Counted from the first letter of the stretch, positions 653 to 15,643 are shown. The stretch is DNA of 25,844 bases from a virus (IMGVR_UViG_3300016471_001133:1-25844); one strand, 5' to 3'. The notes: generated by a model not told the origin, from the sequence alone. Program-made: numbers and translations.

Positions 653-658
653 GCAGGT

Positions 659-1041: not shown

Positions 1042-1092
1042 GGGGGCATGACGCGGCGGACACCGCGGCAAACACCAACCGGAGAGAAAACG

Positions 1093-1362: not shown

Positions 1363-1372
1363 CCGCTACCCC

Positions 1373-1398
1373 GCCCGCCGGCAACTGGGCCGGCGGGC
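1373..1398. other. Intergenic 10-bp GC stem-loop
   Basis: GCCCGCCGGC-AACTGG-GCCGGCGGGC. There is no U-tract, so a processing or stability hairpin is more likely than a terminator. Confidence 0.5.
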
Positions 1399-1427
1399 AA
1401 CACACCACAAACACGAGGACCGACACA

Positions 1428-1634: not shown

Positions 1635-1743
1635 CCGCACATGGTGGGGCCACCCGGCCAGCCGACAGCAGCGAAACGGGTGGCATCCGCACACGATAGA
1701 CTCGACACCCCGCCCCGTGAGGGCACAACCACAGGAGATGACG

Positions 1744-1989
1744 ATGACCCAGCGATTCACGTTCATGGCGTTGCACCGAGCCGGCCGGTTTGCGGTTGTG
1801 CGTGTTCTTCAGAGCGGCGAGGTGGCCGGCTACGATCCCGTGGCCGACCGGAACGACGAGCAGCGGCACTTCCAGATTCACCGCGGGCCGGCGGCATACG
1901 ACCGCGCCTTCGGCGATTCGCGGAAGTACCAGAGTATCGAGGCGGCGATTGCCGACGCCGAGGCGTCGGGCCGCGAAGTCTGCGTTTGA
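1744..1989 (+). CDS. Hypothetical early protein
   Basis: AGGAG RBS at 1733-1737, ATG 1744, MTQRFTFMALHR... Confidence 0.65.
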   Translation: MTQRFTFMALHRAGRFAVVRVLQSGEVAGYDPVADRNDEQRHFQIHRGPAAYDRAFGDSRKYQSIEAAIADAEASGREVCV

Positions 1990-2062
1990 CCACCGGATCG
2001 GCACGTCGCCGGTCAGGGACGACCACCACCGTTTCTTCCTGCCGACAACTGGAGGCCGCAGC

Positions 2063-2545
2063 ATGACACCGGAACTCTCCGCCCTCCTCGAGCACGGTGC
2101 CGCCTGCGTCCGCGTGGCGAAGGGCGACAAGCGACCGCTGGGCAACGCGTGGCAGACCCTCGCGACCAGCGTCGCCGATGTGATCGACGGCTGGCTTGAC
2201 CAGGGCTACAACCTCGGCATCCTGCTCGGGCACGGGAATCTGATCGACGTGGAGTACGACGATGCCGATGGGCGGGCGGTGCTCGCCGCTCGCGGACTAC
2301 TCAACATCGAGACGCCGACCTGGGCGAGCGGCAGGGGCGAGCACAGGCTCTTTCGCCTGGCCGGCCAGCTGCCTGCGATGGGGTGGCGCAAGGTCGGCGG
2401 TGCCGAGATCCGCATCGGCGGCAAGCCGGCCCAGAGCGTGCTCCCCCCGAGCCGCCACCCGAGCGGCAGGCCATACTCATGGATCGTGTCGCCCCTGCAA
2501 TGCAGCCCGGCAGTGGTGACTCTGGCTCAGCTAGGGCTGGCGTAA
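2063..2545 (+). CDS. Stand-alone bifunctional DNA primase/polymerase (Prim-Pol) N-terminal domain
   Basis: GGAGG RBS. Motifs KRPL..W, YNLGILLG, LIDVEYD, TPTWASGRGEHRLF and SVLPPSRHPSGRPYSW match the Prim-Pol pattern. Confidence 0.8.
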   Translation: MTPELSALLEHGAACVRVAKGDKRPLGNAWQTLATSVADVIDGWLDQGYNLGILLGHGNLIDVEYDDADGRAVLAARGLLNIETPTWASGRGEHRLFRLAGQLPAMGWRKVGGAEIRIGGKPAQSVLPPSRHPSGRPYSWIVSPLQCSPAVVTLAQLGLA

Positions 2546-2567
2546 CCACCAGGGCAAGGAGGCCCAC

Positions 2568-2639
2568 ATGAACCCGACCGTCTGGCTCGAGCTCGCAATC
2601 CTGATTCTGCGGATTCTCGCGGCAGGACTTGCGGATTGA
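2568..2639 (+). CDS. 23-aa hydrophobic peptide
   Basis: AAGGAGG RBS then MNPTVWLELAILILRILAAGLAD*; below the ORF-track cutoff. Confidence 0.6.
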   Translation: MNPTVWLELAILILRILAAGLAD

Positions 2640-2732
2640 CAAAAGTTTCCCCACCGCTCCATAATGTTTCCCCATTGCGACTAGGTGATTTTTCGAACGG
2701 TACTTGACGACCTGAACTTCCGTACATATCCT
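2636..2732 (+). promoter_or_regulatory. Tandem sigma70-like promoters
   Basis: TTGACA (2636-2641)-18 nt-CATAAT (2660-2665), with GTTTCCCCA repeated on either side of the -10. Then TTGACG (2704-2709)-17 nt-TATCCT (2727-2732). The region is an AT-richer intergenic stretch. Confidence 0.55.
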
Positions 2733-2758
2733 ACCCCACCCACGCAGGAGATGACCCT

Positions 2759-3043
2759 ATGTACAGCAACTGTCAACCCGGCGACGCGGAGGCCGCGGCC
2801 GCGATCGCAGCCATGGACGAGATCTACGGATCGCCCGCCCAGGGCGAGGGACGCTGGATCGGCGGCCGCCTCATCAGCACCTACGCGGTTGGCGACAGCG
2901 TCAACGTGGCGTTTCCCGACGGGCACCGCCGCTGCGTCGTGATCGAGCGACTCACGGACACGACCTACCACGTCGTGCATCACAAGAGGACCGGCGGCCG
3001 CGAGCACTACGCCATCGACGTGGACGCCATCGCGGCGTTCTGA
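2759..3043 (+). CDS. Hypothetical protein (C-terminal SH3/Tudor-like beta pattern)
   Basis: AGGAG RBS; YAVGDSVNV...VVIERLTDTTYHVV suggests a small beta-barrel. Confidence 0.65.
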   Translation: MYSNCQPGDAEAAAAIAAMDEIYGSPAQGEGRWIGGRLISTYAVGDSVNVAFPDGHRRCVVIERLTDTTYHVVHHKRTGGREHYAIDVDAIAAF

Positions 3044-3155
3044 CCACAGGAGACCCGGTGGAACCGGGGACGCAAGGACGCAGATCGCCGCTGACGCAGG
3101 ACGGGGACGCGGCGGGTTTGACACGGGATCGACAACGCAAGAAAGCGAGGGACAG

Positions 3156-3986
3156 ATGACGACGGAGATCTCCACACACACGGCACCCGCGAGAGGGTTG
3201 GCTCTCGCCACGTTTGACGATGCGTTCCGGTTCGCGAAGGTCGTTGCGGCGACCGAGTTCGCACCGAAGGACTTTCGCGGCAAGCCCGAGGCGTGCCTGC
3301 TGGCGATTCAGCACGGGGCCGAGCTCGGCCTGTCGCCGATGCAGAGCCTGCAGTCGATCGCCGTGGTGAACGGCAGACCCAGCGTCTACGGCGACACCGC
3401 CCTAGCGGTCTGCAAGGGCTCGCCCGTCTGCGAGTGGGTCCGCGAGCGGATCGAGGGCGACGGCGACGCCATGGTGGCGATCTGCGAGGCCAAGCGGCGC
3501 GGCGATGCCGAGCCGGTTGTGAGCCGCTTCACGATGGGCGACGCGAAGCGGGCCGGGCTCGCCGGCAAGGCCGGTCCCTGGACGCAGTACCCTCGCCGCA
3601 TGCTCCAGATGCGGGCTCGAGGATTCGCCCTGCGTGACGCGTTCCCCGACCTCCTGCACGGGCTCATCACGGCGGAGGAGGCGCAGGACTACCCGACGCC
3701 GGCGACGCCGCGCGAGCCGGTGCAGGTGCGGCCGAAGTTTGAGCCGCCGGCGGACGCCGAGCCGGAGACGCCGGACACGCCGGCGAGGGCGACAGTCGAG
3801 GACATGGAGCAGGCCAGGCTGGCGATCAGCAAGGCCCGCACGCCGGAGACGCTCACGAAGATCCGCCGCACGGTGGAGCGTCGGCTTCTCGACGAGCAGT
3901 TCTACACCGACGCCCAGGCGGACGAGCTCCTCGGCTTGCTGGACCACAAGGCCGAGTTCATCAACGGCAGCGAGGTGACGGCATGA
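3156..3986 (+). CDS. recT: RecT-family single-strand annealing recombinase
   Basis: PKDFRGKPEACLLAIQHGAELGLSPMQSLQSIAVVNGRP and GPWTQYPRRMLQMRARGFALRDAFPD are RecT-type motifs. Confidence 0.85.
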   Translation: MTTEISTHTAPARGLALATFDDAFRFAKVVAATEFAPKDFRGKPEACLLAIQHGAELGLSPMQSLQSIAVVNGRPSVYGDTALAVCKGSPVCEWVRERIEGDGDAMVAICEAKRRGDAEPVVSRFTMGDAKRAGLAGKAGPWTQYPRRMLQMRARGFALRDAFPDLLHGLITAEEAQDYPTPATPREPVQVRPKFEPPADAEPETPDTPARATVEDMEQARLAISKARTPETLTKIRRTVERRLLDEQFYTDAQADELLGLLDHKAEFINGSEVTA

Positions 3987-4243
3987 GCGAGCGTCAACGC
4001 CTCTACCGTGCCGAGCTCGGCACGAGCGTGACCGCGAACAATGGACACAGCGTCCTGTCCTGGTACGGCACGCTCACTGAGTGCGGCGAGTGGGTCGAGC
4101 AGGGCCAGACCAGGTGGCGTCGCGACGGCACGTGGCATGAGACGAAGGCCGCGGCGCTGGCGTCGCTCGCCGACAGGATCGACGCGATCGGCTTGGCGTG
4201 CCGACAGCAGGCCCAGCAGCTACGCGAGCAGTCGTCGTCATAG
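3983..4243 (+). CDS. Hypothetical protein
   Basis: ATGA overlap with the recT stop; GAGGTG RBS. Confidence 0.65.
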   Translation: MSERQRLYRAELGTSVTANNGHSVLSWYGTLTECGEWVEQGQTRWRRDGTWHETKAAALASLADRIDAIGLACRQQAQQLREQSSS

Positions 4244-4252
4244 GTACACCAC

Positions 4253-4348
4253 GGCCCGCCCTGGCCGCAGCGGCTGCTCCATACCGGCTGCATGGGTCGC
4301 CAACCGGGAGTGGCGAGTAACCACCGGCGCAGCCCAGCGACACGGGCC
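4253..4348 (+). ncRNA. Candidate structured intergenic RNA
   Basis: Closing stem GGCCCG/CGGGCC, inner CTGG/CCAG, GGCTGC/GCAGCC and TCGCCA/TGGCGA pairings in a 125-nt gap of an otherwise gapless operon. Confidence 0.35.
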
Positions 4349-4368
4349 ACCACAAGGAGGAGCAAGCA

Positions 4369-4629
4369 ATGAGGAAGCGATGGACGCCGCGCCAAGCGCC
4401 GGCATACGACGACGAGCCGCTGGACTTTTCGACGAAAGACGTAGTGCGTTTTCTGCGCGAGCGTAGGCGGCCCGGCTTCGCCGATCTAGTGCAGCACATA
4501 CAAACGAGCCTAATCAGCGAGAGGAAGTGTGCTGAGGAGCTACGCGAGCAGCTGCGGGCGCTGCTGCCACCTCCACCGCCGTACTACGAGCCCTACAACC
4601 CGCGGCCGCCGGCTGAGGCGAGCGACTGA
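4369..4629 (+). CDS. Hypothetical protein
   Basis: AAGGAGGAG RBS; coiled-coil-like middle section and Pro-rich tail. Confidence 0.65.
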   Translation: MRKRWTPRQAPAYDDEPLDFSTKDVVRFLRERRRPGFADLVQHIQTSLISERKCAEELREQLRALLPPPPPYYEPYNPRPPAEASD

Positions 4630-4718
4630 GGGACCAGCCACGAAAGGCTTAATCGACGCTGGGTGTACCCGCTCGGTCAGGCCCGCATTTTCACAAAAGA
4701 GGCGACCAGGAGGATGGC

Positions 4719-5051
4719 ATGAGCAACGACTTCTTTCACCTCGACACCGTCTCGCGTCTAGCCGACCTGCCGCTCTTCGCGCCGGCCCGGGCTCGAGTAA
4801 GCGACCCGCCGACATCGCACGCGGCCGCGAAGCGTGCCCCGGTGGCGAATCACAACCAGCGGATCCTCGACGCCCTGGCGGCCGGGCCTGCCGGCCAGAG
4901 CGAGCTCGCGAGCCGCACCGGGCTGACCGTGGCCGCGGTGTCGAAGCGGCTCAGCGGGCTGCGAGCCGACGATCGGATCGAGCGGTGTGGCGAATGCCGA
5001 TCGGCGACGGGCGGACGCGAGGCGATGTATCGGTTGAGGGCATCGCAATGA
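4719..5051 (+). CDS. Winged-helix HTH protein
   Basis: AGGAGG RBS; ARVSDPPTSHAAA followed by RILDALAAGPAGQSELASRTGLTVAAVSKRLSGL, a wHTH pattern. Confidence 0.75.
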   Translation: MSNDFFHLDTVSRLADLPLFAPARARVSDPPTSHAAAKRAPVANHNQRILDALAAGPAGQSELASRTGLTVAAVSKRLSGLRADDRIERCGECRSATGGREAMYRLRASQ

Positions 5052-5275
5052 AAAAGCCTTTGACGACTGCCGAGCGGGAGCAAAGCCGTTCAGTTGTAAT
5101 CGAGAGCCTTTGTTTGGCGATTCAGGCGGGATGGACAGAGCAAGAAAAACTTGAGCGATCAGTGTGGCGAAAAATCGACCATGTGTCGTGGGACGTTCCG
5201 TACTTCTACGTTCATCACACTGAAATCGCGAAGCAAGGAAAAGGGCGAACTCTCGTCTATCGACGAGGCGAATGA
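5048..5275 (+). CDS. Hypothetical protein
   Basis: ATGA overlap with the upstream gene; MKKPLTTAEREQ...; visibly lower GC. Confidence 0.55.
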   Translation: MKKPLTTAEREQSRSVVIESLCLAIQAGWTEQEKLERSVWRKIDHVSWDVPYFYVHHTEIAKQGKGRTLVYRRGE

Positions 5276-5363
5276 TCAAACGGGCGTCGCGTTGACGTGC
5301 TGAGCAGACTTGACGCCCGTGCCACGGTATGGGCTCGGTAACACGACACGCAAGGAGGCAAAG

Positions 5364-6800
5364 ATGACGACGACACGATCCGGGCTCACGGTTGATGCTG
5401 ACTTTTCTCAGCTGATTGAGCCGCTTGACAAAGCAGAGCTGGCCCAGCTGGAAGCAAACATTGTCGAGCACGGTAGCGCTCGCGACCCTTTGGTTGCATG
5501 GCGAATTGCCCCTAAAGGTATTTCTGAATATGCGGAACAGGCGGCACTTGATGGCTCACAACTACAGGCCGCGACGGACGATGAAATTCTCGAGGCTGCC
5601 ACACAGTCGGCGGCCGACTGCGGAAGCCGTCGCCCGTACCCTGACTGCCGAATTGCCGGTCGTACCCAGCACTGGGTTCTGGTCGAGGTAACTGGACACA
5701 TTGACGGCGACGACTGCAAGTACGGGTCATGGCGTGATTTCGTGTGGCACTGCGCGTACACCTGCGAGCCATGCTTTGACGACACCGATCTGATTTTGAT
5801 CGACGGCCACAACAGGCTGGAGATTTGCACGCGACTCAACCTGCCCTACGAGGTAGTCGAGGTTGCGTTTCAAGACCGGGACGCCGCTGCCCTTTGGATC
5901 GAAGAGAACCAAGTCGGGCGGCGTAACCTCAGCGACGATCAACGGAGCGTTATTGCGGACAGCATCCGCGACAGACGCAGCCGTGCTTCTGTGGTCGCGG
6001 CAGCTGCAAAGGCGAGGCAGGCAAAGATTGCCGGCTCTGTTGAGGACAACGCGTCCTCGACAAAGAAAGACGATGGCAAGAAGGGTCGCACGCGCGCTGC
6101 GGTCGCCGAAGAGCTGAAGGTGCCAGAGCGAAAGCTTCGGGCCGTAGCCGAAGTGAAGAAGACCGACGCCGGCAAAGATCTTTTGAAGCAGGTTCGCAAG
6201 GGCGAGATCACGCTGGCCGAGGCTAGGCGGCAGGTGAAAAAGGCCGAGGTCGTTGCCAAGCTCGAGGACGTTTCTGCCCGCGAGGCCAAGGCGCTGGCCG
6301 GGCAGTACGACGTGATCGTCATCGACCCGCCGTGGCCGATGGAGAAGATTGAGCGTGACGTGACGCCAGAGCAGGTGGCGTTTGAATACCCCACCATGCA
6401 GGAGGACGAGCTGGCTGCGATGCAGATGCCGGCTGCCGACGACTGCCACGTCTGGGTTTGGACGACCCACAAGTTTCTACCGATGTGCCTCCGGCTACTT
6501 GACGCTTGGGGCCTGAAGTACGTCTGCACATTCGTCTGGCACAAGCCAGGCGGATTCCAGCCGTTCGGACTGCCTCAATACAACTGCGAGTTCGCCGTCT
6601 ACGCCAGGCGTGGAACGCCGCAGTTCATTGACACCAAGGCGTTTCCAGTTTGCTTTGACGCGCCGCGCGGAAAGCACAGCGAAAAGCCAGAGGCTTTCTA
6701 CGACGTTGTTAGGCGTGTAACGGCTGGCAGGCGGATCGACATTTTTAATCGTCGAGCACTTGAAGGGTTCGACGTTTGGGGCAAGGAGGCCGACGAGTGA
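5364..6800 (+). CDS. ParB-like domain fused to an MT-A70-family N6-adenine methyltransferase
   Basis: AAGGAGG RBS. ParB-like LEANIVEHG..RDPL...LIDGHNRLEIC...NQVGRRNL, then MT-A70 motifs YDVIVIDPPW, VWVWTT, FVWHK, HSEKPEAFY and IDIFNR. Confidence 0.85.
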   Translation: MTTTRSGLTVDADFSQLIEPLDKAELAQLEANIVEHGSARDPLVAWRIAPKGISEYAEQAALDGSQLQAATDDEILEAATQSAADCGSRRPYPDCRIAGRTQHWVLVEVTGHIDGDDCKYGSWRDFVWHCAYTCEPCFDDTDLILIDGHNRLEICTRLNLPYEVVEVAFQDRDAAALWIEENQVGRRNLSDDQRSVIADSIRDRRSRASVVAAAAKARQAKIAGSVEDNASSTKKDDGKKGRTRAAVAEELKVPERKLRAVAEVKKTDAGKDLLKQVRKGEITLAEARRQVKKAEVVAKLEDVSAREAKALAGQYDVIVIDPPWPMEKIERDVTPEQVAFEYPTMQEDELAAMQMPAADDCHVWVWTTHKFLPMCLRLLDAWGLKYVCTFVWHKPGGFQPFGLPQYNCEFAVYARRGTPQFIDTKAFPVCFDAPRGKHSEKPEAFYDVVRRVTAGRRIDIFNRRALEGFDVWGKEADE

Positions 6801-7348
6801 CTGCGACGTACAAGCAGCAGCGTGCGTGGTCTGATTCATTGTTGGGCGAGGCACGGATGCTGGTCGGCTTTTGCACTGTGTCTGCGGCCAGCTACGAAGA
6901 CGACACCGAGCGTGCAACCGATCTGCGGTGGCTCAACACAAGCGGGGCGCAGTCTGCTCGTGTGGCTTGTCGGCTTCGCGACCACACCTACTTCGAGCGT
7001 TATCCAGATGAGTTCACCATTCGTTCGTACTCAAACGGATACGAGACGGAACTAGACAAGATTATGTCTGGCCACGGAACCCACATGCTGTACGGATTCA
7101 GGACGCCAGACGGCAGGCACATTGGTGCGTGGCGGTTCCTAGATCTGTTTTCGTTTCGGAAATGGTACTTCCGGGTTGCGCCTCTTGTTTTGAACGGCCG
7201 TGTGCAATTGCCTTGGTCAGTTCAAGACAACGGCGACGGCACCAAGTTTCACGCATTTCGGTTTTGCGATCTGCCATCGGACCTTGTCTTGTTTCGAGGG
7301 ACTGGCTTGAAAGTTTGCGACAACGCACAACTGGATTTTCCGTTTTAG
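6797..7348 (+). CDS. Hypothetical protein, possible PD-(D/E)XK-like nuclease
   Basis: GTGA overlap with the MTase stop and an AAGGAGG RBS. Acidic motifs EDDTERATDL...VACRLRD...DEFTIRS...ETELDKI. The nuclease call is an inference. Confidence 0.55.
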   Translation: MTATYKQQRAWSDSLLGEARMLVGFCTVSAASYEDDTERATDLRWLNTSGAQSARVACRLRDHTYFERYPDEFTIRSYSNGYETELDKIMSGHGTHMLYGFRTPDGRHIGAWRFLDLFSFRKWYFRVAPLVLNGRVQLPWSVQDNGDGTKFHAFRFCDLPSDLVLFRGTGLKVCDNAQLDFPF

Positions 7349-7358
7349 GAGGCCAGCC

Positions 7359-8213
7359 GTGGCCGGTGAATGGATTCCCATCGACTGCAACCTCGGCACG
7401 AAGCCCGAGGTGCTAGAGCTGGTGGACGAGACTGGCGAACCTGTTGAGGTCGTCGTCTATCGTCTCATCCAGTTGTGGTCGTGGGCGTCCATGAACACCG
7501 CTGACGGGACGATCCGCACCACACCGGCGCGGCTCGCAGCGGTGGCAGGAGGTGACGAAGCGTTTTGGCTCGCTGTTGAGCGGGTCGGCTGGGTGTCGTT
7601 TTTGAACGATACCGTCGTCATCCGGGGCTGGGAGAGGCGTTTTTCCCGGGCCGCAAAGGCGCGTGCGGAAAACGCGCGACGGGCGTGCGCTTATCGTGCG
7701 CGAAAAGCGCGACCACAGGAGAGGACAGGAGAGGAGAGTACAGAAGAAGAAATACCGGCTGCGCCGGTTCCCACGACCGAGGCGGCTACGCCGCCTCGCT
7801 CGCGGGCGAAGCCTGGCGTTTCGTGGTCGGCTGACGCCGGGTGGGACGGCATCACGGACGCTGACCGCTCCGAGTGGGCCGCGGCGTTCCCTGGGGCGGT
7901 GCTCGATCAGGAGCTCGCGAAGGCGACCGCCTGGCTGCGGGCGAACCCGAAGCGGTGCGGCAAGCGGAACTGGCGTCGGTTCCTTGTCGGCTGGCTGCAG
8001 CGTTGCCAGGACAAGGGCGGCACGAACCGCGAGCCAGGGAACCGGCCGACCGGGCCGCCGCCGGTTGAGGCCGCGAAGCGTCGGTACTACCGCTCGGATG
8101 CGAATCGCAGCATGACCGACGCGGAGTACGCGGCGTGGCAACGCGACCGCAACTCCGGTGGCGTGGTCGCCGCGCTTGCATCAGGGTTCAGACTCAAGGA
8201 GGAGATCACATGA
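7359..8213 (+). CDS. Phage replication initiator-like protein
   Basis: GTG start with AGGAGG RBS. N-terminal WIPIDCNLGTKPEV...YRLIQLWSWA helix domain, charged linker, C-terminal ELAKATAWL..NP...NWRRFLVGWLQR domain typical of phage initiators. Confidence 0.7.
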   Translation: MAGEWIPIDCNLGTKPEVLELVDETGEPVEVVVYRLIQLWSWASMNTADGTIRTTPARLAAVAGGDEAFWLAVERVGWVSFLNDTVVIRGWERRFSRAAKARAENARRACAYRARKARPQERTGEESTEEEIPAAPVPTTEAATPPRSRAKPGVSWSADAGWDGITDADRSEWAAAFPGAVLDQELAKATAWLRANPKRCGKRNWRRFLVGWLQRCQDKGGTNREPGNRPTGPPPVEAAKRRYYRSDANRSMTDAEYAAWQRDRNSGGVVAALASGFRLKEEIT

Positions 8214-8893: not shown

Positions 8894-9132
8894 CCAGCGA
8901 CCTGGCACTGATCGCACTTGGAGCAATCACGACCGTGGCGACGTTCGCCCTCGGCGTGGCGGTGGGACGGCAATCACGGAGGACTGCACATGACGACGGC
9001 AACCAAGCGGCGACGAACTACTGGCGGCGTGACGCTCTCAACCGCGTCGCTCAAGGCGGCGCTGGCGGCGATCAAGCCGGCGATCTCGACCCGGCCGACG
9101 AAGCCGGCCCTATCCGGCGCTCTGCTCGCTGA
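8890..9132 (+). CDS. Small membrane protein overlapping the start of dnaN
   Basis: ATGA coupling and GAGGAGGT RBS; hydrophobic N-terminus LALIALGAITTVATFALGVAVG; 143-nt overlap with dnaN. Confidence 0.5.
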   Translation: MTSDLALIALGAITTVATFALGVAVGRQSRRTAHDDGNQAATNYWRRDALNRVAQGGAGGDQAGDLDPADEAGPIRRSAR

Positions 9133-10120
9133 CGGCACGATCACGGCGACCGATCTGGAAATCCAGATCTCGGCCGAGATCGACTACCACGGCGAGCCGC
9201 TCCTTCTCCCGCACGCCAGGCTGGCGGCGATCCTGCAGACGGCGATCGGGCCGGAGGTCTCGCTGGCCGTCGAGGGCTCCGTATGCGTCGTGAGCGTCGG
9301 ACGCGGCGTCTGGCGGCTTCCGGTTGAACAGGCGGCCGAATTCCCGGCCTGGACCCCGGAGGGCGTCAAATCGCTTGTACGGCTTCCAGGCGACCAATTC
9401 GTCCGGGCGGTCGCCGCGACCCACTACGCGACGGACACCGAGTCGTCGCGGTACGCCCTCGGTGCGGTGCTGCTCTCGGTGAGCCGCGAGGACGGCCGTG
9501 CCAATTTCGTGGCGACCGATGGCCGGCGGATGTCGGTGGTGGTCTGCGAGCACGGGCAGGACACCGACGGCGGCGAGCCGCTGGTCCCGGGCCACGTGCT
9601 GCAGGCGATCGCCAGGTTGTCGTCGTCGCACGCCGACAGCATCGAGGTGCAGCTGGAGGCGTCGGATCGCGAGCTTGTCGCCACGATGCCGGGAGCGACG
9701 GTCCATGCCCGGCTGATCGAGGGCAAGTTCCCGCGATGGCGCGATGTCGTCGTGATCGACCGGCCCGGCGAGCAGGTCTGCGTGATCAACCGCGAGGAGC
9801 TCAGGCACGCCACGACTAGCGCGGCGATCGTGACGACCGAGCAGAGCAAGGGCGTGGAGTACCGGTTCGAGGCGGACGGCCTGCACGTGCATGGCAAGAG
9901 TTCTGAGGCCGGCGAGTCGTCGATCACGGCCGATGTCGTCACGGGCGTGGAGCGGCCGGTCACGGTCAAGCTCGATCCGCGGTTTGTGGCGGACTGGCTC
10001 CGCGGGCTGTCAAGCGAGAACGACCCGGATGTGTCGGTCCATGTCGTCGATGCGGCGTCGGCGACGGTGCTAACGTGCGACGACTGCACGGGCGTGATCA
10101 TGCCTCTGGCGGCCGACTGA
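8990..10120 (+). CDS. dnaN: DNA polymerase III beta sliding clamp
   Basis: 376 aa; motifs KPALSGALL, ITATDLEI, EFP, SRYALGAVLL, FVATDGRRM, RLIEGKFPRWRDV and C-terminal VIMPL. Confidence 0.9.
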   Translation: MTTATKRRRTTGGVTLSTASLKAALAAIKPAISTRPTKPALSGALLADGTITATDLEIQISAEIDYHGEPLLLPHARLAAILQTAIGPEVSLAVEGSVCVVSVGRGVWRLPVEQAAEFPAWTPEGVKSLVRLPGDQFVRAVAATHYATDTESSRYALGAVLLSVSREDGRANFVATDGRRMSVVVCEHGQDTDGGEPLVPGHVLQAIARLSSSHADSIEVQLEASDRELVATMPGATVHARLIEGKFPRWRDVVVIDRPGEQVCVINREELRHATTSAAIVTTEQSKGVEYRFEADGLHVHGKSSEAGESSITADVVTGVERPVTVKLDPRFVADWLRGLSSENDPDVSVHVVDAASATVLTCDDCTGVIMPLAAD

Positions 10121-10121
10121 C

Positions 10122-10604
10122 ATGGATGACAATTCGAAAGAGCGTCTGGCGGCTCTTGTGGACGCCGGGCACAGCATGCGAGAGATCGCCGAGATACTCG
10201 GAGTGTCTGTGCAGCATGCGGCCCGCGCGTTCGCGGTCGCCGGCGTGGCGATGCCGATGCCGCCGAGCCGCGGGATCGTGTACCGCACGCGGGTGCGTGA
10301 CGTGTCGAAGCTGCTCCACCTGTGGCAAGAGACGACGCTGTCGCAGGCGGACGTGGCCCAGCGGTTGAACGTGACGCGTGGTGCTGTCTCTCGGGCGGTG
10401 CGGTACTACGGGCTCGAGCCGCGACCCGGAGACGTGCCGGACAAGCCGCCGGACTCGGAGATCGAAGACTCGGCGGGCGATCTGCGATTGGCTCCGCACG
10501 TCGAGGCGGCGGCCGAGCTGATTCGCCGGCAGTGGTCGCCGGAGGAGGAGTACCTGAGGCGAGTCACGATGGTTCAGCCGCTGACGATCGGAGAGTTGCC
10601 ATGA
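10122..10604 (+). CDS. Double-HTH DNA-binding protein
   Basis: GHSMREIAEILGVSVQHA and LSQADVAQRLNVTRGAVSRAV are two HTH-like segments. Confidence 0.7.
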   Translation: MDDNSKERLAALVDAGHSMREIAEILGVSVQHAARAFAVAGVAMPMPPSRGIVYRTRVRDVSKLLHLWQETTLSQADVAQRLNVTRGAVSRAVRYYGLEPRPGDVPDKPPDSEIEDSAGDLRLAPHVEAAAELIRRQWSPEEEYLRRVTMVQPLTIGELP

Positions 10605-10744
10605 GCGTGACGCTGCTCTTCGTCGTGTCGCTGATCTACTGGGGCGTCGCCATCGACCAGTGGATAAAGGGTTCACCGGCCGGGTTCGTCGTGTGGGCGA
10701 GCTACGGCGCGGCGAACTGGGGGCTCATGTGGCTGACGAGATAA
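10601..10744 (+). CDS. Small membrane protein
   Basis: ATGA overlap; MSVTLLFVVSLIYWGVAIDQWIKG...; two hydrophobic segments. Confidence 0.6.
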   Translation: MSVTLLFVVSLIYWGVAIDQWIKGSPAGFVVWASYGAANWGLMWLTR

Positions 10745-10756
10745 CGGAGGCTGATC

Positions 10757-10978
10757 ATGGAATCCTTGGCTCTCGCCGCCGCGCTCGTCATGCTGTCGAT
10801 CTGTGGCGTGTCGCTCGCGGCCCTGGTCGCCGGGATATTCCGCCGGCCGGTGCTGTGCTGGCTGTTCGGTGGATTGTCCGTCTTGGCCGGCGGTTGGCTG
10901 TGGGTGACGGTGCCGCACCTCTGGCCTCTGGCGGCGTGGTGCGTGGCGGTCGGCGTATATGCGGTGTGGCGGGTGTAG
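10757..10978 (+). CDS. Small membrane protein (about three TM segments)
   Basis: GGAGG RBS; almost entirely hydrophobic; its TAG stop overlaps the first attC core. Confidence 0.65.
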   Translation: MESLALAAALVMLSICGVSLAALVAGIFRRPVLCWLFGGLSVLAGGWLWVTVPHLWPLAAWCVAVGVYAVWRV

Positions 10979-11064
10979 AACGCCAGCGATCAGCGGCCCG
11001 CGACCTATGACCATGAACAAACCAACCGACACTCTCGCGGGTCAGCTGCATCGCGTGGTTAGCC
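10975..11064 (-). repeat. attC site A (90 bp)
   Basis: Minus strand: GGCTAAC-CACGC-GAT[G]CAGCTG[A]CCCGCGA...TCGCGGG-CCGCTG-ATC-GCTGGC-GTTCTAC. 5/6-nt spacers and two extrahelical bases, as in canonical attC. Confidence 0.85.
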
Positions 11065-11507
11065 TGCGGATTGTGCCGATTGACCACAAAGGGGCGAACG
11101 CTTTTGTCCAGAAGCACCACCGGCACCACAAGCCCACGGTGGGCCATAAGTTCAGCCTCGCCATTGCGGACGATACTGACGCCATTCGCGGCGTGGCGAT
11201 TGTGGGCCGCCCGGTGGCTCGGATGCTGGACGATGGATGGACGCTGGAGGTGAACCGCTGCTGCACGGACGGCGTTCGCAACGGGTGTTCGATGCTCTAC
11301 GGCCGGGCGTGGCAAGTGGCGAAGGCTCTCGGCTACCGGAAACTCATCACCTACACGCTGCCTGCGGAAGGCGGGTCGAGCCTTCGCGGAGCTGGGTGGA
11401 AGTGCATCGGGGAACGTGGTGGCGGCAACTGGAACGTTAAGTCGCGGCCACGGGTGGACACCGACCTTTTGCTCCAGGGACAGAAGCTACTTTGGGAAGC
11501 AGGCTAA
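11007..11507 (+). CDS. XF1762-family-like protein (GNAT fold, related to Mom-type base modifiers), cassette A
   Basis: ANAFVQKHHRHH, GVAIVGRPVARMLDDG.TLEVNR, NGCSMLYG...KLITYT...GSSLRGAGW. The start lies inside attC A, and the TAA stop ends at the crossover point. Confidence 0.7.
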   Translation: MTMNKPTDTLAGQLHRVVSLRIVPIDHKGANAFVQKHHRHHKPTVGHKFSLAIADDTDAIRGVAIVGRPVARMLDDGWTLEVNRCCTDGVRNGCSMLYGRAWQVAKALGYRKLITYTLPAEGGSSLRGAGWKCIGERGGGNWNVKSRPRVDTDLLLQGQKLLWEAG

Positions 11508-11592
11508 CACGGAAGATGAGCGGCATCGCCACGGAGGACGATGATATGACGAAAGACGCTGCGGCGATGTCCGCTCCATCGGCTGGTTCTGC
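11502..11592 (-). repeat. attC site B (91 bp)
   Basis: Plus strand: GGCTAAC-ACGGAA-GAT-GAGCGG-CATCGCC...GGCGATG[T]CCGCTC[C]ATC-GGCTG-GTTCTGC. Perfect stem with a compensatory G/C swap relative to sites A and D. Confidence 0.85.
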
Positions 11593-11623
11593 TGCGTCGG
11601 CGTGGGAGATGTGTAATGCCTGA
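11546..11623 (+). CDS. attC-encoded leader peptide coupled to the cassette B gene
   Basis: GGAGG at 11533-11537 in the attC loop; MTKDAAAMSAPSAGSAASAWEMCNA*; its end overlaps ATG 11616. Confidence 0.4.
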   Translation: MTKDAAAMSAPSAGSAASAWEMCNA

Positions 11624-12464
11624 ACACCACTTCCTGAATCTCGGCGCTGGCGTCCAATCGACGGCGCTCTACCTCTTGAGCATCGACGGCGACGAGCCGG
11701 AAGTGCCGCGATTTGACGCCGCCATCTTCGCTGACACGCAGGAGGAGCCGGATGAGGTCTATCGGCACCTTGAATGGCTGGAGAAGCAGGGCGGGCCGCC
11801 GATTGTGCGGGTCACGGAGGGAAAGTTAGGAGACGCATTAGACAGTCGAAAAAACGATGGGCATTACACTGCCATTCCGGCGTACACGCTCCACCCTGTG
11901 ACCGGACAGCGAGCAATGGTTCAGAGACAATGCACAGGCGACTTTAAGGTTAAGCCACTAGAACGAAAAATGAGGGAACTGCTCGGAGTTGTCCCTGGCC
12001 GACCTATTCCGAAGGAGCAAATACTCCACCAATACATGGGGCTGTCGTTCGATGAGCCAAAACGAGTCATTCGCGTAAAGGAGCGATTCCTCGCCAAGCC
12101 GTCGAACTGGAAGGTGCATTTCCCGCTATGGGAAATGCAGTGGGATCGCGGTGACTGCAAGGCATACCTGCGCGACCGGATGCCATATGAGGTGCCGCGC
12201 TCGGCGTGCGTGTTCTGCCCGTTCAAGTCAGACGAGGAGTGGCGTCGGCTGCGTGACAGCGACCCGAAGGGGTGGGCGCGGGCCGTTGAAATAGATCACG
12301 CTTGCCGCATTGGAAAGATGGACGCTCACCGCTTCTTGCACAAAGCGTGCTTGCCTCTGGACGAGGTTGACCTACGGTCCGCCGACGAGAAGAGCGGGCA
12401 GATGAATATTTTCAAGCACCTGCGCGGGTTTCAAGACGAGTGCGAAGGGTATTGTGGGAACTAG
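11616..12464 (+). CDS. PP-loop / PAPS-reductase-like adenine nucleotide alpha-hydrolase, cassette B
   Basis: FLNLGAGVQSTAL (SxGxxS-type loop), AIFADTQEEP, RQCTGDFKVKP, RSACVFCPF and a terminal ECEGYCG Cys cluster. Confidence 0.75.
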   Translation: MPEHHFLNLGAGVQSTALYLLSIDGDEPEVPRFDAAIFADTQEEPDEVYRHLEWLEKQGGPPIVRVTEGKLGDALDSRKNDGHYTAIPAYTLHPVTGQRAMVQRQCTGDFKVKPLERKMRELLGVVPGRPIPKEQILHQYMGLSFDEPKRVIRVKERFLAKPSNWKVHFPLWEMQWDRGDCKAYLRDRMPYEVPRSACVFCPFKSDEEWRRLRDSDPKGWARAVEIDHACRIGKMDAHRFLHKACLPLDEVDLRSADEKSGQMNIFKHLRGFQDECEGYCGN

Positions 12465-12466
12465 CA

Positions 12467-12557
12467 GCAGAACACGGAAGATCAGCGGCGGCGAGCCACG
12501 GACTATGAGCAAACCAACCGACGATAACGAGCCGTCTGCTGCATCGCGTGGGTCTGG
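12467..12557 (-). repeat. attC site C (91 bp, core mutated)
   Basis: Plus strand: GCAGAAC-ACGGAA-GAT-CAGCGG-CGGC...GCCG[T]CTGCTG[C]ATC-GCGTG-GGTCTGG, with GTT changed to GGT. Confidence 0.8.
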
Positions 12558-12762
12558 CGGGCCTGACCTTCGCGGCCCTGCCGTGATTGTTACCGGGTCA
12601 GTGATCGGAGGATTCACGTTCATCGGGCCGTTTCCAACAATCGAACACGCTGCGGAGTGGCACGCCAAGCGGTCGCTTCCCGGTGTGCTGGGCCTCCCGG
12701 CGGATGCGATTGTCTTGCTGGAGTCGCCGGATCGGCACGCTGTAGTGAGGAACGACGATTAG
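12505..12762 (+). CDS. Hypothetical protein, cassette C
   Basis: ATG in the attC C loop; MSKPTDDNEPSAASRGS...VIVTGSVIGGFTFIGPFPTIEHAAEW; TAG immediately before the next core. Confidence 0.65.
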   Translation: MSKPTDDNEPSAASRGSGGPDLRGPAVIVTGSVIGGFTFIGPFPTIEHAAEWHAKRSLPGVLGLPADAIVLLESPDRHAVVRNDD

Positions 12763-12852
12763 CCAGAACGCCAGCGATCAGCGGCCCGCGACCTATGACC
12801 ATGAACAAACCAACCGACGCTATCGCGGGTCCGCTGCATCGCGTGGTTATGC
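12763..12852 (-). repeat. attC site D (90 bp), near-identical to site A
   Basis: AGAACGCCAGCGATCAGCGGCCCGCGACCTATGACCATGAACAAACCAACCGAC is shared exactly with site A; only three differences up to GTTA. Confidence 0.85.
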
Positions 12853-13376
12853 GCTTTTGCTACGCGGACCCGCCCTACCTTGGCTGCGGCAAAAGGCTCT
12901 ACGGCAAGATGCACGCCGAGGCCGCCGAGTGGGACGATCCCGAGCGGCATCGCCATCTCATCGGCCGGCTCTGTGACGAATACCCGGACGGCTGGGCCAT
13001 GAGCCTGCACACGCCGAGCCTGCGGACGATCCTGCCGATGTGCCCCGAGGACTGCCGAGTGGCGGCATGGGTGAAGCCGTTCGCGGTGTTCAAGCCCAAC
13101 GTCACGGTGGCCTACGCATGGGAGCCGGTGATATTCCGGGGCGGCAGGCCGCGACCGCGAACGATGCCGACCGTGCGGGATTGGGTGTTGGAGTGCATCA
13201 CGCTGAAGAAGGGCTGCCCAGGGGCGAAGCCGGAAGGTTTCACGCTCTGGCTACTGGATTTACTCAACGTGGAACCGCAAGACGAGTTCGTTGATATGTT
13301 CCCCGGAAGCGGCATGGTCAGCGAGGCGGTCGAACGGTGGCGTCGGTCGCCACGGTTGCCGCTTCAGTACGCATAA
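12795..13376 (+). CDS. DNA amino-methyltransferase (N6A/N4C), cassette D
   Basis: YADPPY catalytic motif near the N-terminus, AWVK, WEPV, AKPEGF, and a C-terminal SAM motif VDMFPGSG. Alternative starts at 12801 and 12849. Confidence 0.8.
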   Translation: MTMNKPTDAIAGPLHRVVMRFCYADPPYLGCGKRLYGKMHAEAAEWDDPERHRHLIGRLCDEYPDGWAMSLHTPSLRTILPMCPEDCRVAAWVKPFAVFKPNVTVAYAWEPVIFRGGRPRPRTMPTVRDWVLECITLKKGCPGAKPEGFTLWLLDLLNVEPQDEFVDMFPGSGMVSEAVERWRRSPRLPLQYA

Positions 13377-13389
13377 CCAGTGCTTATCC
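13371..13389 (-). other. attI-like simple recombination site
   Basis: Minus strand: GGATAAG-CACTG-GTTATGC, an inverted L-like box, a 5-bp spacer and a GTT core, with no attC stem. Confidence 0.5.
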
Positions 13390-13399
13390 GGTCCGCACA

Positions 13400-13459
13400 G
13401 CGATCCCGGCGGGCATCGACCGCACATATAAAGCGGTGACGAGCACCCGCCGGGATCGC
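13400..13459. repeat. 14-bp perfect inverted repeat with a nested hairpin
   Basis: GCGATCCCGGCGGG (13400-13413) / CCCGCCGGGATCGC (13446-13459), enclosing ACCGC-N9-GCGGT. Confidence 0.7.
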
Positions 13460-13475
13460 CAACACAGGAGCAACC

Positions 13476-13697
13476 ATGACAGGCGAGGTAGATGAGATGT
13501 CCGCTGCATCCGCTGGTTCTGCGAGCAGTGGGAAAGACGCCGACCGACAGGCGCTGGCCGATTCATCCGGCCCAACAAAGCCTGCGCGGCTTTATTTTGT
13601 GCCGCCGCCGGAGATGCTGGTGGATGCGATCCATGACCCAGTCGGCCCGACGAGCGGACGACGGATTGCCAGCAAGAGATTCGGGACGAAGAAGTAG
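13476..13697 (+). CDS. Hypothetical protein, probable relic cassette
   Basis: AGGAG RBS; the N-terminal MSAASAGS segment is encoded by an attC half-site at 13500-13522. Confidence 0.5.
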   Translation: MTGEVDEMSAASAGSASSGKDADRQALADSSGPTKPARLYFVPPPEMLVDAIHDPVGPTSGRRIASKRFGTKK

Positions 13698-13706
13698 GCA
13701 GCACCC

Positions 13707-13802
13707 ATGTCCGACATCGTCTCTCGCCTGCGTCGGTGGAGTCACGCGGTCGATGAACCGGACGAAGTGAGACAGGTGCTGCGGCAAACTGTCGGAAACT
13801 GA
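13707..13802 (+). CDS. Short or truncated hypothetical protein
   Basis: MSDIVSRLRRWSHAVDEPDEVRQVLRQTVGN*; fills the gap between genes. Confidence 0.35.
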   Translation: MSDIVSRLRRWSHAVDEPDEVRQVLRQTVGN

Positions 13803-13806
13803 CATC

Positions 13807-14013
13807 ATGCCGCTAGTTATCGTCCAGTACCGCCTGCCAGACGAAGAGCACGAATACCTCGCGGCGATGCAAGGCGTCGCGGCGCTCGCGGTGTTGCATG
13901 ACATCGACCAGCATTGCCGCAGCCTCGTGAAGCACGGCACGCCAAGCGAAGAGACCGAGGCGCTTGCCGAGCACATCCGGCAACTGATTGCCGAGGCGGA
14001 CGTAACGCTGTGA
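13807..14013 (+). CDS. Hypothetical protein
   Basis: MPLVIVQYRLPDEEHEYLAAMQG...; coding-like. Confidence 0.65.
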   Translation: MPLVIVQYRLPDEEHEYLAAMQGVAALAVLHDIDQHCRSLVKHGTPSEETEALAEHIRQLIAEADVTL

Positions 14014-14039
14014 TTTGACACGGCGGCGATCATGCCGCC

Positions 14040-14202
14040 ATGCCAACCGCCACGCTCCGCTTCCGCCATCGCGCACCTCGACGAGCATCTCGCCGAGGCG
14101 ATCAAGGGCGGCGAGCTCGGCCACGATGTCGAGACGGCGTACCAGGAGCTACGCGAGTGGCTTCGGACCCACTGCGCTTCATACGGGCTCGATCTGCCAT
14201 GA
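14040..14202 (+). pseudogene. Frameshifted paralog-like remnant of the 13807 gene
   Basis: MPTATLRF in one frame, then SAIAHLDEHLAEAIKGG...YQELREWLR...DLP* in the +1 frame, ending in an ATGA overlap with rusA. Confidence 0.45.
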
Positions 14203-14597
14203 CCGTCACGCTGTCCATCCCGGGTGATCCGGTGCCGCAGCCTCGCCCGCGGGTGTCCACCGCCGGCGGATTCGCACGGGCGTACGTGCCGAAGTCGCAT
14301 CCGATCCACGCCTATCGCCAGGCGATCGCACTGGCGGCGAGCGTCGCCGGGCTCCGCGAGCAATCGCGGCCCGTGAGCGTCATCATCGACGCGGTGTTCG
14401 CGCGGCCGAAGTCGCACTTGACGAAGTCCGGCGTCAAGCCATCGGCACCAGCGCTGCCGCGTCCCGACGTGGACAACCTGGGCAAGGCGGTGCTTGATGC
14501 GTTGCAAGAGGTGATGGGCGACGACACACACGTAGCCCGGCTTGTGGTCGAGAAATCGTGGGGCACCGAAGGACGCACGACGGTACGGATCACATGA
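14199..14597 (+). CDS. rusA: RusA-family Holliday junction resolvase
   Basis: IPGDPVPQPRPR...RPDVDNLGKAVLDAL...GDDTHVARL carries the RusA catalytic Asp pattern. Confidence 0.9.
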   Translation: MTVTLSIPGDPVPQPRPRVSTAGGFARAYVPKSHPIHAYRQAIALAASVAGLREQSRPVSVIIDAVFARPKSHLTKSGVKPSAPALPRPDVDNLGKAVLDALQEVMGDDTHVARLVVEKSWGTEGRTTVRIT

Positions 14598-15643
14598 ATC
14601 TGCACGTGAACATGGTGGCGTACAACGAAGAGCGCCACATCGAGGAGGCGATTGACTCGATTCTGTCGCAGTCGTTTCGTGACTTCGAGCTCGTCGTTCA
14701 CGACAACTGCTCGACCGATCGCACGGTCGAGATCTGCGAGCGGATCGCCAGCGGCGACCGGCGGCTGCGAATCAACCGTGGCCGATTCAACGTGGGCGCG
14801 GTGCTGCAGCAGCTGCGGGTTCATTGCAACTGGGACGCCGACTACGTCGCGTTTCGCTCGGCCAATGACGTGATGCACCCGGACTACGTCGCGGAGGCGA
14901 TGGAGCTTCTGTCATCCAATCCCGATGTTGGCCTGGCGTACAGTCACGGCTGTGATTTCGCGGGCGACATCGCGACGGCGACTCCGACGCCGGATGAATT
15001 TTGCATCGACACTCGCGGTCTCTCGCGATCGCAGGCATGCGCCGAGGTGATGGGCCGATACTGTTCGCCGCATCCGCTGTGGGGAGTGTGGCGACGCGGC
15101 GTCCGCGAGATGTGCAGGGCGTGCCAGTTCTCCTACGGCTCCGATCACGTGCTGATTGCCGAGGCGGCCCTCTACGGCCATGTCGCCGCGACTCCCGGCA
15201 GGCTGGACTATCGGCGACAAGCGGCCCGCGACGGGCGGGAAGTGCTCCGCGACAACGCCACGCACCACTCGTGCGAAGAAAGCGTCCGCGGGTGCGACCT
15301 CGGTAGCGTGTTCTCGTCGCCGAAAATTCTGATGCCGTTCGTCGATCTGGCGTACAGCCACATCGAGATGTTGAGCATGGCTCGCATTTCCGACGACGAG
15401 CGCGTGGCACTGATGGACGCGGCGCTTGTGATATTCCGCGCGAGGTTCGGCGAGCGGCTCGCGATGGAGGCGCGCGTGTTCGCGGAGTGGCTGAGCACGG
15501 CGGCGGATGCCGTGTCCGAGGCGAGTCAATCGAGCCGCGTGCTGATCTGCACGTGGCGGACCAAGGTGGCTCGCGAGATCGGGAAGTTGCGGACGCTGAA
15601 TTTGCCGACCGAAGCGTGCGACAGGATGCTCGCGCAATGCTGA
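14594..15643 (+). CDS. Glycosyltransferase family 2
   Basis: VAYNEERHIEEAIDSILSQSFRDFELVVHDNCSTDRT and YVAFRSANDVMHPDY. Confidence 0.9.
   Translation: MNLHVNMVAYNEERHIEEAIDSILSQSFRDFELVVHDNCSTDRTVEICERIASGDRRLRINRGRFNVGAVLQQLRVHCNWDADYVAFRSANDVMHPDYVAEAMELLSSNPDVGLAYSHGCDFAGDIATATPTPDEFCIDTRGLSRSQACAEVMGRYCSPHPLWGVWRRGVREMCRACQFSYGSDHVLIAEAALYGHVAATPGRLDYRRQAARDGREVLRDNATHHSCEESVRGCDLGSVFSSPKILMPFVDLAYSHIEMLSMARISDDERVALMDAALVIFRARFGERLAMEARVFAEWLSTAADAVSEASQSSRVLICTWRTKVAREIGKLRTLNLPTEACDRMLAQC

Follow-up and report, generated by a model that had tools for sequence, protein, structure and literature searches.

In the prophage record IMGVR_UViG_3300016471_001133 (25,844 bases; this whole stretch of DNA is called the window here), four complete hairpin repeats of ~82 nt and one degraded copy separate five co-oriented genes. 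What are these hairpins, and why does each of them carry an ATG in its loop? Integron cassettes, as they are usually taught, consist of a promoterless gene followed by its attC site and are read from one platform promoter, and attC hairpins are usually discussed as obstacles to translation. A first-pass annotation of the window had proposed that the repeats are attC sites lying inverted relative to the genes, that each site supplies its own gene with a start signal, and that translation through the hairpin would spare the operon polarity effects. After comparing the locus with related arrays, we consider it probable that the repeats are integron attC-type sites in an integrase-less prophage array, that the genes occupy the attC bottom strand, and that the hairpin loops likely act as portable translation starts. 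The sites are called A to E below, each gene bears the letter of the site that precedes it, and the coordinates are collected in Table 1.

The repeats are members of a large family. About 200 viral stretches (at least 138 among the matches listed) contain a 16-nt motif of the 3′ arm, and many contigs carry several copies per few kilobases. Family sites consist of two conserved arms of ~20 nt around a variable center whose loop ranges from ~5 to ~37 nt. Without the boxes described below, their lengths are bimodal, with forms of 41-43 and of 79-83 nt, and the short forms fall under the published attC range of 57-141 bp. An alignment of 98 sites yields an imperfect hairpin of 21 pairs, 15 of which covary by changes on both sides. 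Pairing is retained in 90.5% of the stem cells, compared with 72.8% after shuffling and 26-40% when the partners are slid, and 279 cells have changed doubly where 75.6 would be expected; none of 500 shuffles reached the observed values. A covariance model built from the 98 family members recognizes the four complete copies of the window readily (Table 1). The degraded copy, scored at 13428-13522, reaches only 14.4 bits, and elsewhere on the + strand of the window the best match is at most 8.8 bits. A repeat finder reports copies A and D as 85-nt repeats of 96% identity and also recovers the common 3′ arm and loop blocks, and the differences between the stem of site B and those of A and D are compensatory.

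The architecture of these hairpins can be compared with that reported for attC sites (Nivina et al. 2016, PMC5027507). There, the bottom strand carries a 5′-AAC within a 7-nt box at its 5′ end and is exchanged at the step from A to C. Extrahelical bases protrude from the opposite arm at positions 16 and 23/24, a 6-bp stem separates the first from the last of them, an unpaired spacer lies between the R and L boxes, and the terminal structure is variable. The R-box consensus is RYYYAAC / GTTRRRY, and AAC alone is conserved among all sites. Read from the 3′ end of the + strand, the window repeats show a 7-nt box, a 3-nt spacer, a 5-bp box, a bulged C at position 16, the 6-bp stem CCGCTG, and a bulged T at position 23. 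Throughout the family, the bulged bases sit on the + strand arm opposite AAC, as in the geometry of an attC bottom strand. In 97 distinct sites, the three pairs between the AAC and GTT triplets are formed 97, 95, and 97 times. In the window, sites A, B, and D combine AAC with GTT, and site C has GGT at its 3′ end. The boxes GGCTAAC/GTTAGCC and GCATAAC/GTTATGC come near the RYYYAAC consensus.

A link to integron integrases (IntI) is provided by bacterial chromosomes. Prokaryotic species were surveyed by one genome each, and 17 contigs carry true sites, those in which both arms are present; 10 of these contigs bear labels of Planctomycetota lineages. In two metagenome-assembled genomes (MAGs; labels Planctomycetaceae and Planctomycetota), the family flanks ordinary cassettes beside integron integrase genes. 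The first of these contigs (G003:C19, L170) encodes a full integron integrase on the minus strand at 6754-7890 (TIGR02249, 454.5 bits against a cut-off of 265), with at least 10 family sites beside it at 667-6106. Because the first cassette junction lies 137 nt past the intI stop codon, the integrase gene reads into its own array, and attI is presumed to lie within those 137 nt. The second contig (G001:C197) has a plus-strand site at 147-235 and, ~480 nt away at 717-1205 on the minus strand, the C-terminal half of an IntI gene, in the same relative orientation as on G003:C19. When these arrays are read away from attI, the top strand is the complement of the orientation used to score the sites, which agrees with the position of the bulged bases. 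Judged by their architecture and by the family members beside IntI genes in two MAGs, the window repeats are attC-type sites, as had been proposed. With four such sites and a relic where two suffice, and with no intI seen nearby in the window, the array corresponds to a CALIN (a cluster of attC sites lacking an integrase). As a separate observation, positions 1-7890 of G003:C19 make up a complete chromosomal integron of a Planctomycetaceae MAG, with at least 10 cassettes that include ParE-like and MazF toxin-antitoxin genes.

If the repeats are recombination sites, the DNA between them should bear the marks of exchanged units. Such marks were sought in a viral set of 21 stretches from 20 records (128 sites) and in a chromosomal set of nine stretches (53 sites). 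Full complementarity between the 4 nt that follow GTT in one site and the 4 nt that precede AAC in the next site is seen in 88 of 106 viral and 27 of 44 chromosomal segments. In an earlier form of this test the count was 48/73, compared with 15% for random pairs and 22/155 for the two boxes within a single site. Within the window, the boxes that enclose genes A, B, and D match at 7/7 positions each and those that enclose C and E at 6/7. Every gene is thus flanked by a split 7-bp inverted repeat of the form GTTnnnn ... n′n′n′n′AAC, whose halves reside in neighboring sites, and at the level of sequence this is the classical mark of units exchanged beside a conserved triplet. A partner of the last 3′ box is found just beyond gene E; it is probably all that is left of a terminal site since lost and would mark the right end of the array.

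The extent of the mobile unit can be read from cassettes that have entered different arrays. The comparison drew on 22 cassette pairs, homologous at 85% identity or more, whose members reside in different arrays; a twin record nearly identical to the window was excluded. Moving from left to right, the mismatch fraction is 0.35 in the 4 nt before the upstream AAC (background 0.45), 0.19 in the upstream 5′ arm (background 0.345), 0.14 in the upstream 3′ arm (background 0.26), and 0.03 in the inner box after the upstream GTT (background 0.45). It is still 0.07 in the inner box before the downstream AAC (background 0.45), and then rises to 0.395 in the downstream 5′ arm (background 0.345), 0.29 in the downstream 3′ arm (background 0.26), and 0.34 in the 4 nt after the downstream GTT (background 0.45). 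When pairs are counted with the twin included, the upstream arms are the closer ones in 20 of 24, the downstream arms in two, and the two sides are equal in two. In these alignments, the upstream site is linked to the gene through the whole hairpin, and linkage stops sharply at the AAC of the next site. The mobile unit therefore consists of C, hairpin, GTTnnnn, gene, and n′n′n′n′AA. As far as sequences can tell, this asymmetry is as predicted for A/C exchange on the + strand and is not expected from recombination within the arms. It also supports the earlier claim of a start signal that travels with its own gene, insofar as the upstream site does so. Loops alone had given an ambiguous answer: among 17 pairs, the upstream loop was the same and the downstream loop different in six, the reverse held in one, both differed in nine, and both agreed in one, and in a second comparison both sides differed in 16 of 17 scorable pairs. 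The ambiguity was resolved by comparing arms and boxes.

The orientation of the genes sets the phage arrays apart from the chromosomal ones. In the chromosomal arrays, 12 of 19 open reading frames (ORFs) tested on the strand opposite to the sites match Pfam families (ParE-like, MazF, PIN, DinB, GrpB, ankyrin, and several DUFs), as opposed to none of seven tested on the site strand. The Mom-like and PAPS-reductase-like genes of the window lie on the site strand. In 19 other viral records, 93 unique cassette ORFs were scanned on this strand, the only one covered there, and 16 of them have Pfam matches (14 DUF551, one N6_N4 methylase, and one zinc ribbon). A comparison of the longest open frames on the two strands was uninformative in this GC-rich DNA (49 vs 43 in the viral arrays), and Pfam and PHROG matches were used instead. 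Phage genes are thus found on the attC bottom strand, the one with extrahelical bases opposite AAC, whereas Pfam-supported chromosomal cassette genes are found on the top strand. The sites are inverted relative to the phage genes, as previously claimed, and each phage gene therefore has its own attC upstream. Cassettes of canonical orientation within viral arrays were considered and rejected; six segments without an ORF that ends at the next box still have site-strand genes. Conversely, no phage-type cassettes occur among the 53 chromosomal sites, where loop ATGs are incidental and no ORF reaches the next box. DUF551 is the commonest recognizable cargo in the viral arrays L216-L235 (14/93) and occurs both with and without an attC-encoded N-terminal extension.

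Do the loops contain start signals throughout the viral family? The statement that every attC loop contains an ATG holds within the window and fails for the family at large, because 38 of the 128 viral sites are short forms whose loop of ~5 nt leaves no room for a start, and 12 of the 90 long sites lack a loop ATG. In the other 78 long sites a loop ATG is present, and 70 of these 78 have a Shine-Dalgarno-like motif, defined as GGAG, GAGG, or AGGA located 5-13 nt upstream of the ATG. Where an ATG-bearing viral site is followed by another site, the ORF that begins at the loop ATG ends exactly at the next 5′ box in 54 of 66 cases, and 50 of these 54 ORFs use the SAASRGS frame of the 3′ arm. A stop codon of the preceding frame lies in or beside the 5′ box in 93 of 99 viral cassette segments examined. 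The loop is where 52 of the 93 unique viral cassette ORFs begin; the other 41 begin after the site. The chromosomal arrays present a very different picture, with a loop ATG in nine of 53 sites, a Shine-Dalgarno-like motif in one, and readthrough to the next site in 0/44. From these patterns it is likely that phage loops supply a portable ribosome-binding site and start codon. There is no sign of selection on the sequence of the shared peptides, which are shared because the DNA arms are conserved.

The genes of the window illustrate several ways in which such starts could be used. The peptides quoted in the first-pass annotation translate as written, and two frames of the 3′ arm are in use, with PLHRVV encoded at A and D and SAASxGS at B, C, and E. 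Since no ATG of its own is available near the 5′ end of gene A, a loop ATG is the likely start. Its alignment to PHROG 1384 begins at residue 16, and all four other copies of this cassette (94-99% protein identity) have an in-frame loop ATG, with two loop types represented over the five copies. The TAA stop codons of genes A (11505-11507) and D (13374-13376) had been said to end exactly at the crossover point, and they do fall within the 7-nt boxes GGCTAAC and GCATAAC and end at the A|C step. Gene B has its own GGAGA and an ATG 27 nt after the site, in a spacer that is conserved in relatives. Its leader ORF had been described as 25 amino acids with a GGAGG that ends over the next ATG. The length, the GGAGG, and the overlap with the start of gene B stand, and the stop codon, in ATGCCTGA, is more precisely placed 3 nt past the ATG at 11616. 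In all five B copies, window included, the loop ORF ends at the same TGA in ATGCCTGA, and the five copies have five loop types. More generally, although the loops differ, the frame or the leader stop is preserved in cassette copies of A, B, and D from elsewhere.

Gene D carries its loop ATG in frame with an internal ATG at 12849, which lies within the 3′ box. All seven other copies of the D cassette keep this internal ATG; five of them have a loop ATG, in frame in all five. Some relatives of the D protein match PF02086. Genes C and E have no match in Pfam or PHROG. The peptide MSAASAGS, previously assigned to the relic site at 13476, does translate, but it is an inner part of MTGEVDEMSAASAGS, the translation of an ORF that begins upstream, at 13476, with MTGEVDEM. 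Among loci of homologs, sites are present at 5/69 for A, 6/31 for B, and 8/80 for D, and more distant relatives are not flanked by sites. As a side observation, the 5′ arm of site E is interrupted by a hairpin with a perfect 14-bp stem at 13400-13459, flanked by duplicated GCGATC/GATCGC, and the same is seen in the twin record (L236). This hairpin has the appearance of an insertion by which the array's last site was inactivated.

Predicted RNA folds are compatible with loop starts. As RNA, sites A to D fold at -28 to -37 kcal/mol (-34.5 kcal/mol for site A, whose loop is unpaired), with the ATG, and in B also the GGAGG, in the open apical loop. Site E folds at -62.7 kcal/mol. Among 200 shuffled versions of each site, equal stability was reached by one for A, none for D, two for B, and 44 for C, and the folds of B and C are weaker. 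A search of the sites against Rfam returned no match. In a promoter scan of 10000-14600 there was a single promoter-like match, on the minus strand inside gene B, compared with a mean of 0.8 in shuffled sequence. Neither promoters nor terminators gave a signal above chance, and no promoter-like hexamers occur within the sites.

These findings can be assembled into a working mechanism. A host integron integrase would fold the + strand, with strand exchange taking place between A and C, and whole units would move in and out of the phage accessory-gene region between the sliding-clamp and RusA genes. The host of the window phage is probably a member of Planctomycetota. In the mRNA, the hairpin would display the Shine-Dalgarno motif and ATG in its open apical loop. 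Since the preceding gene terminates in or beside the 5′ box, we propose that a terminating ribosome would melt the base of the stem, after which a ribosome that initiates in the loop would unwind the 3′ arm. The products of A, C, and E would gain an attC-encoded N-terminal tag. Gene B would be reached through the 25-codon leader that ends at its ATG, by termination-reinitiation, and translation of D may begin either at the loop ATG, which would give an extended form, or at the gene's own ATG at 12849. An additional role of the hairpins as RNA, alongside recombination, is plausible and forms part of the explanation that we favor.

A number of observations weigh against this explanation. No IntI-like match was found in 29 viral records (the window included), six of which are at least 90% complete. 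In the 25.8-kb record of the window there is no TIGR02249-like match at E ≤ 1e-5, and since this record is ~64% complete an integrase may lie elsewhere in the prophage. Recombination would therefore need a host enzyme, one never seen together with a phage array, and the host assignment is taken from MAG labels. The sites depart from other attC sites in having C rather than the usual G as bulged base 16, a spacer of 3-4 rather than 5-6 nt, and boxes, most commonly TGAGAAC and then ACAGAAC, that do not follow RYYYAAC. The counts given above are not independent, because the viral records were picked by the 16-nt motif from the window and the cassette pairs overlap in their members. Moreover, loop sequences change more rapidly than the genes. 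The site that precedes the PAPS-reductase gene has the same arms in L386 and L388, and the first 400 nt after it are identical too, but the two loops are unrelated. A second process therefore acts too, perhaps homologous recombination by phage RecT. That process could in principle be the only one still at work: the sites would be attC-derived, the array frozen, and any shuffling now due to homologous recombination between the ~20-nt arms, by phage RecT for example, with no current role for IntI. We regard this as unlikely. The lack of IntI in the viral records, the loops swapped between identical arms in L386 and L388, the RecT-like annealing protein of the window, and arms that are long and conserved enough to serve as recombination substrates are all in its favor. 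Exchange within arms, however, should loosen both sides equally, whereas the upstream arms fall well below background and the gene-abutting downstream 5′ arm does not. Furthermore, the linkage breaks at AAC, the cut position of integron integrases, and box complementarity is retained in most viral segments.

Other doubts concern the use of the loops. The type II loops, those of A and D, lack a clear Shine-Dalgarno motif. Among D homologs, 15 of 23 begin at the residue that matches the ATG at 12849, and two of the seven other D copies have no loop ATG, one of them with ATT in its place; the loop start is therefore dispensable for D. To this extent the claim of loop-ATG starts is not supported as first worded; loop ATGs are mostly in frame with the cassette ORF (54 of 66). 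Taken further, these facts could mean that loop ATGs are never used, that true starts lie at or after the 3′ box, that in-frame loops are tolerated by-products, and that the hairpins are purely DNA sites. The 41 unique cassette ORFs that begin after the site would also fit this alternative, which seems to us improbable. By chance only about one third of the ORFs should stay in frame through to the next box, and the frequency of Shine-Dalgarno-like motifs is not accounted for either. In gene A, where an own ATG is lacking, the loop ATG is in frame in 5/5 copies of two loop types, the five B copies with their five loops share one leader stop, and sites of the same family in chromosomes lack start signals. 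In addition, the D relative P0002 has Arg in place of the internal Met and therefore needs an upstream start. At the other extreme, the repeats might be mainly RNA elements, either processing sites of the RNase III type or operators at which a phage regulator controls the translation of toxic DNA-modification genes. The regulation of Mom in phage Mu is an example of such control. All sites are co-oriented with transcription, form stable RNA hairpins, and are located at gene starts, and the first gene is Mom-like. Even so, this is the least credible of the three alternatives and highly improbable, because the same family lies antisense to genes in chromosomal arrays beside IntI, split 7-bp inverted repeats and a linkage break at AAC are signatures of DNA exchange, Rfam contains no match, and promoter and terminator signals do not exceed chance.

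Beyond attC-type sites with loop starts, we tentatively advance a wider proposal that remains open to considerable doubt. Phages that probably infect Planctomycetota may keep their accessory region as a cassette array run by the host integrase, with a mirror-image cassette pool of their own in which the attC loop is a start module that works in any context. Because the phage cassettes are mirror images, a phage operon would express them and a host integron would leave them silent, with the reverse for host cassettes. If this is true, a single recombination system serves two separate gene markets. The Mom-like, PAPS-reductase-like, and DNA methyltransferase-like cargo of the window consists of DNA-modification genes of the anti-restriction kind, and the array could therefore be a means by which the phages swap anti-restriction genes.

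How does this locus relate to known systems? Integrase-less attC clusters in phages are already known, and 17 CALINs have been reported from phage genomes, some of them tested with IntI1 (Qi et al. 2023, PMC9892861). As far as they are described in that report, those clusters resemble the present arrays in their imperfect hairpins with AAC/GTT ends, extrahelical bases, and a variable loop, and also in their single-gene units, the lack of a nearby integrase, and the presence of DNA methyltransferases in the cargo. The present arrays differ in having one highly conserved site family, genes on the bottom strand, phage-type cargo (DUF551, Mom-like, and many ORFans), and start signals within the sites. 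In class 1 integrons, a short ORF in attC relieves the block caused by the hairpin through termination-reinitiation (Jacquier et al. 2009, in PMC8876359; also PMC11511950). The ORF of site B is similar in that it starts in attC and ends at the start codon of the next gene. Known attC ORFs are described as few and anecdotal (PMC11511950). They come from class 1 cassettes in which the attC belongs to the upstream gene, whereas here ORFs are systematic, the attC belongs to the downstream gene, and the loop ATG mostly opens the cassette protein itself. Synthetic attC sites placed within coding sequences are read as linker-like peptides (Nivina et al. 2020, PMC7439510). Here too a hairpin is read as codons, but the sites are natural, N-terminal, and equipped with initiation signals. 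Finally, an inverted integron-integrase group has been reported (2016, PMC4889954), and the intI of G003:C19 likewise reads toward its array. The inversion in that report concerns the integrase gene, whereas in phage arrays the cassette genes are inverted relative to attC.

Our literature search found neither a paper on start codons within the loops of phage attC arrays nor one on CALINs of Planctomycetota phages. Among mobile modules of other kinds, promoter-early stem-loop (PeSL) modules shuffle small genes in T4-type phages. Both systems place repeated intergenic stem-loops around small accessory genes in a hyperplastic region of the phage genome, but the sites described here have no promoter-like hexamers and instead have attC geometry and a link to IntI. 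As far as the literature search shows, this suggests that the mirror orientation, the systematic loop start signals, the phage-type cargo, and the size of the family are new. A design that reverses the textbook cassette is thus found in a large natural family, in which attC precedes the gene and appears to carry a ribosome-binding site and the first codons. If this holds, the family illustrates a way for mobile genes to carry along a translation start that functions at any landing place, provides a natural counterpart to engineered attC sites inside coding sequences, and brings the hypervariable accessory region of a widespread environmental phage group within the reach of integron recombination.

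Table 1. Coordinates of the array and of neighboring features in the window. Scores in bits are from the covariance model.
Feature	Position	Strand	Details
Partial integrase, left end of window	1-504		PHROG 1 match only
Replication module			Prim-Pol, RecT, MT-A70 methyltransferase, replication initiator, LexA-like, HNH endonuclease, sliding clamp
RecT-like annealing protein	3156-3986		
Sliding clamp	8918-10120		
Helix-turn-helix protein and two small membrane ORFs			Between sliding clamp and array
Site A, attC-type, long form	10975-11064	+	83.2 bits; repeat-finder family D2; 5′ box GTAGAAC, 3′ box GTTAGCC; loop ATGs 11007 and 11013
Gene A, Mom-like DNA-modification protein	11007-11507	+	PHROG 1384, E=4e-38; blastn matches to phage Mom-like genes
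Site B, attC-type	11502-11592	+	70.0 bits; 5′ box GGCTAAC, complement of site A 3′ box; 3′ box GTTCTGC; loop GGAGG and ATG 11546
B leader ORF, 25 codons	11546-11623	+	Starts in site B loop; GGAGG 8 nt upstream of ATG
Gene B, PAPS-reductase-like	11616-12464	+	PHROG 424, E=2.5e-38
Site C, attC-type	12467-12557	+	70.5 bits; identical copy in L100; 5′ box GCAGAAC, complement of site B 3′ box; 3′ box GGTCTGG, GGT replacing GTT; loop ATG 12505
Gene C, 85 aa	12505-12762	+	Loop ATG, SAASRGS frame; TAG abuts site D 5′ box
Site D, attC-type	12763-12852	+	95.3 bits; 96% identical to site A; 5′ box CCAGAAC, matching the complement of site C 3′ box at 6/7 positions; 3′ box GTTATGC, includes ATG 12849; loop ATGs 12795 and 12801
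Gene D, DPPY-motif DNA methyltransferase-like	12795-13376	+	Loop ATG in frame with own ATG 12849
Site E, degraded	13371-13522	+	5′ box GCATAAC (13371-13377), complement of site D 3′ box; 3′ box GTTCTGC; loop (AGGAG, ATG 13476) and 3′ arm intact, 5′ arm disrupted
Gene E, 73 aa	13476-13697	+	Starts in site E loop; AGGAG 5 nt upstream
GCAGCAC, probable trace of terminal site	13698-13704	+	6/7 match to box expected to pair with site E 3′ box GTTCTGC
RusA resolvase	14040-14597		Right of array; then glycosyltransferase and tail genes

The window is the complete sequence of an IMG/VR provirus record, with a G+C content of ~65% and a completeness estimate of 64%. By Pfam and PHROG annotation most of its genes are on the + strand, and the array lies within the prophage because replication genes and a resolvase gene flank it. 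In a search of deposited phages by blastn, only the Mom-like gene was matched (12 records, 60-80% identity), and no site was found. Every one of 28 viral records searched with the covariance model, the window counted, has an array of this family, and in 27 records searched in this way the sites form one co-oriented cluster in each. In the viral records inspected, the cluster is located between the clamp gene and a gene for RusA, endonuclease VII, or another resolvase, or near portal, tail, or integrase genes. The twin of the window, IMGVR_UViG_3300016652_000106 (L236, L316, L385), comes from another sample and has the same A-B-C-D-E array with 99-100% protein identity. Apparent joints in public Logan contigs, such as those that connect 12494 to 13499 and 10997 to 12829, were considered as signs of excision and rejected, as they represent other family sites with arms that map to two window sites; Logan contigs break at the repeated arms.

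Directly 5′ of the array, positions 10603-10978 encode two small hydrophobic ORFs of 47 and 73 aa that belong to no family, and the TAG stop codon of the second falls in the 5′ box of site A. Farther upstream, a 496-aa ORF at 5310-6800 fuses a ParB-like N-terminal part to an MT-A70 methyltransferase domain. Together with the Mom-like, PAPS-reductase-like, and DPPY methyltransferase-like genes, this gives the prophage four predicted DNA-modification functions. In the tail region, the gene for a 573-aa tail protein (22865-24586) contains three tandem 66-nt repeats at 23030-23227, which are 74-79% identical to the first copy.

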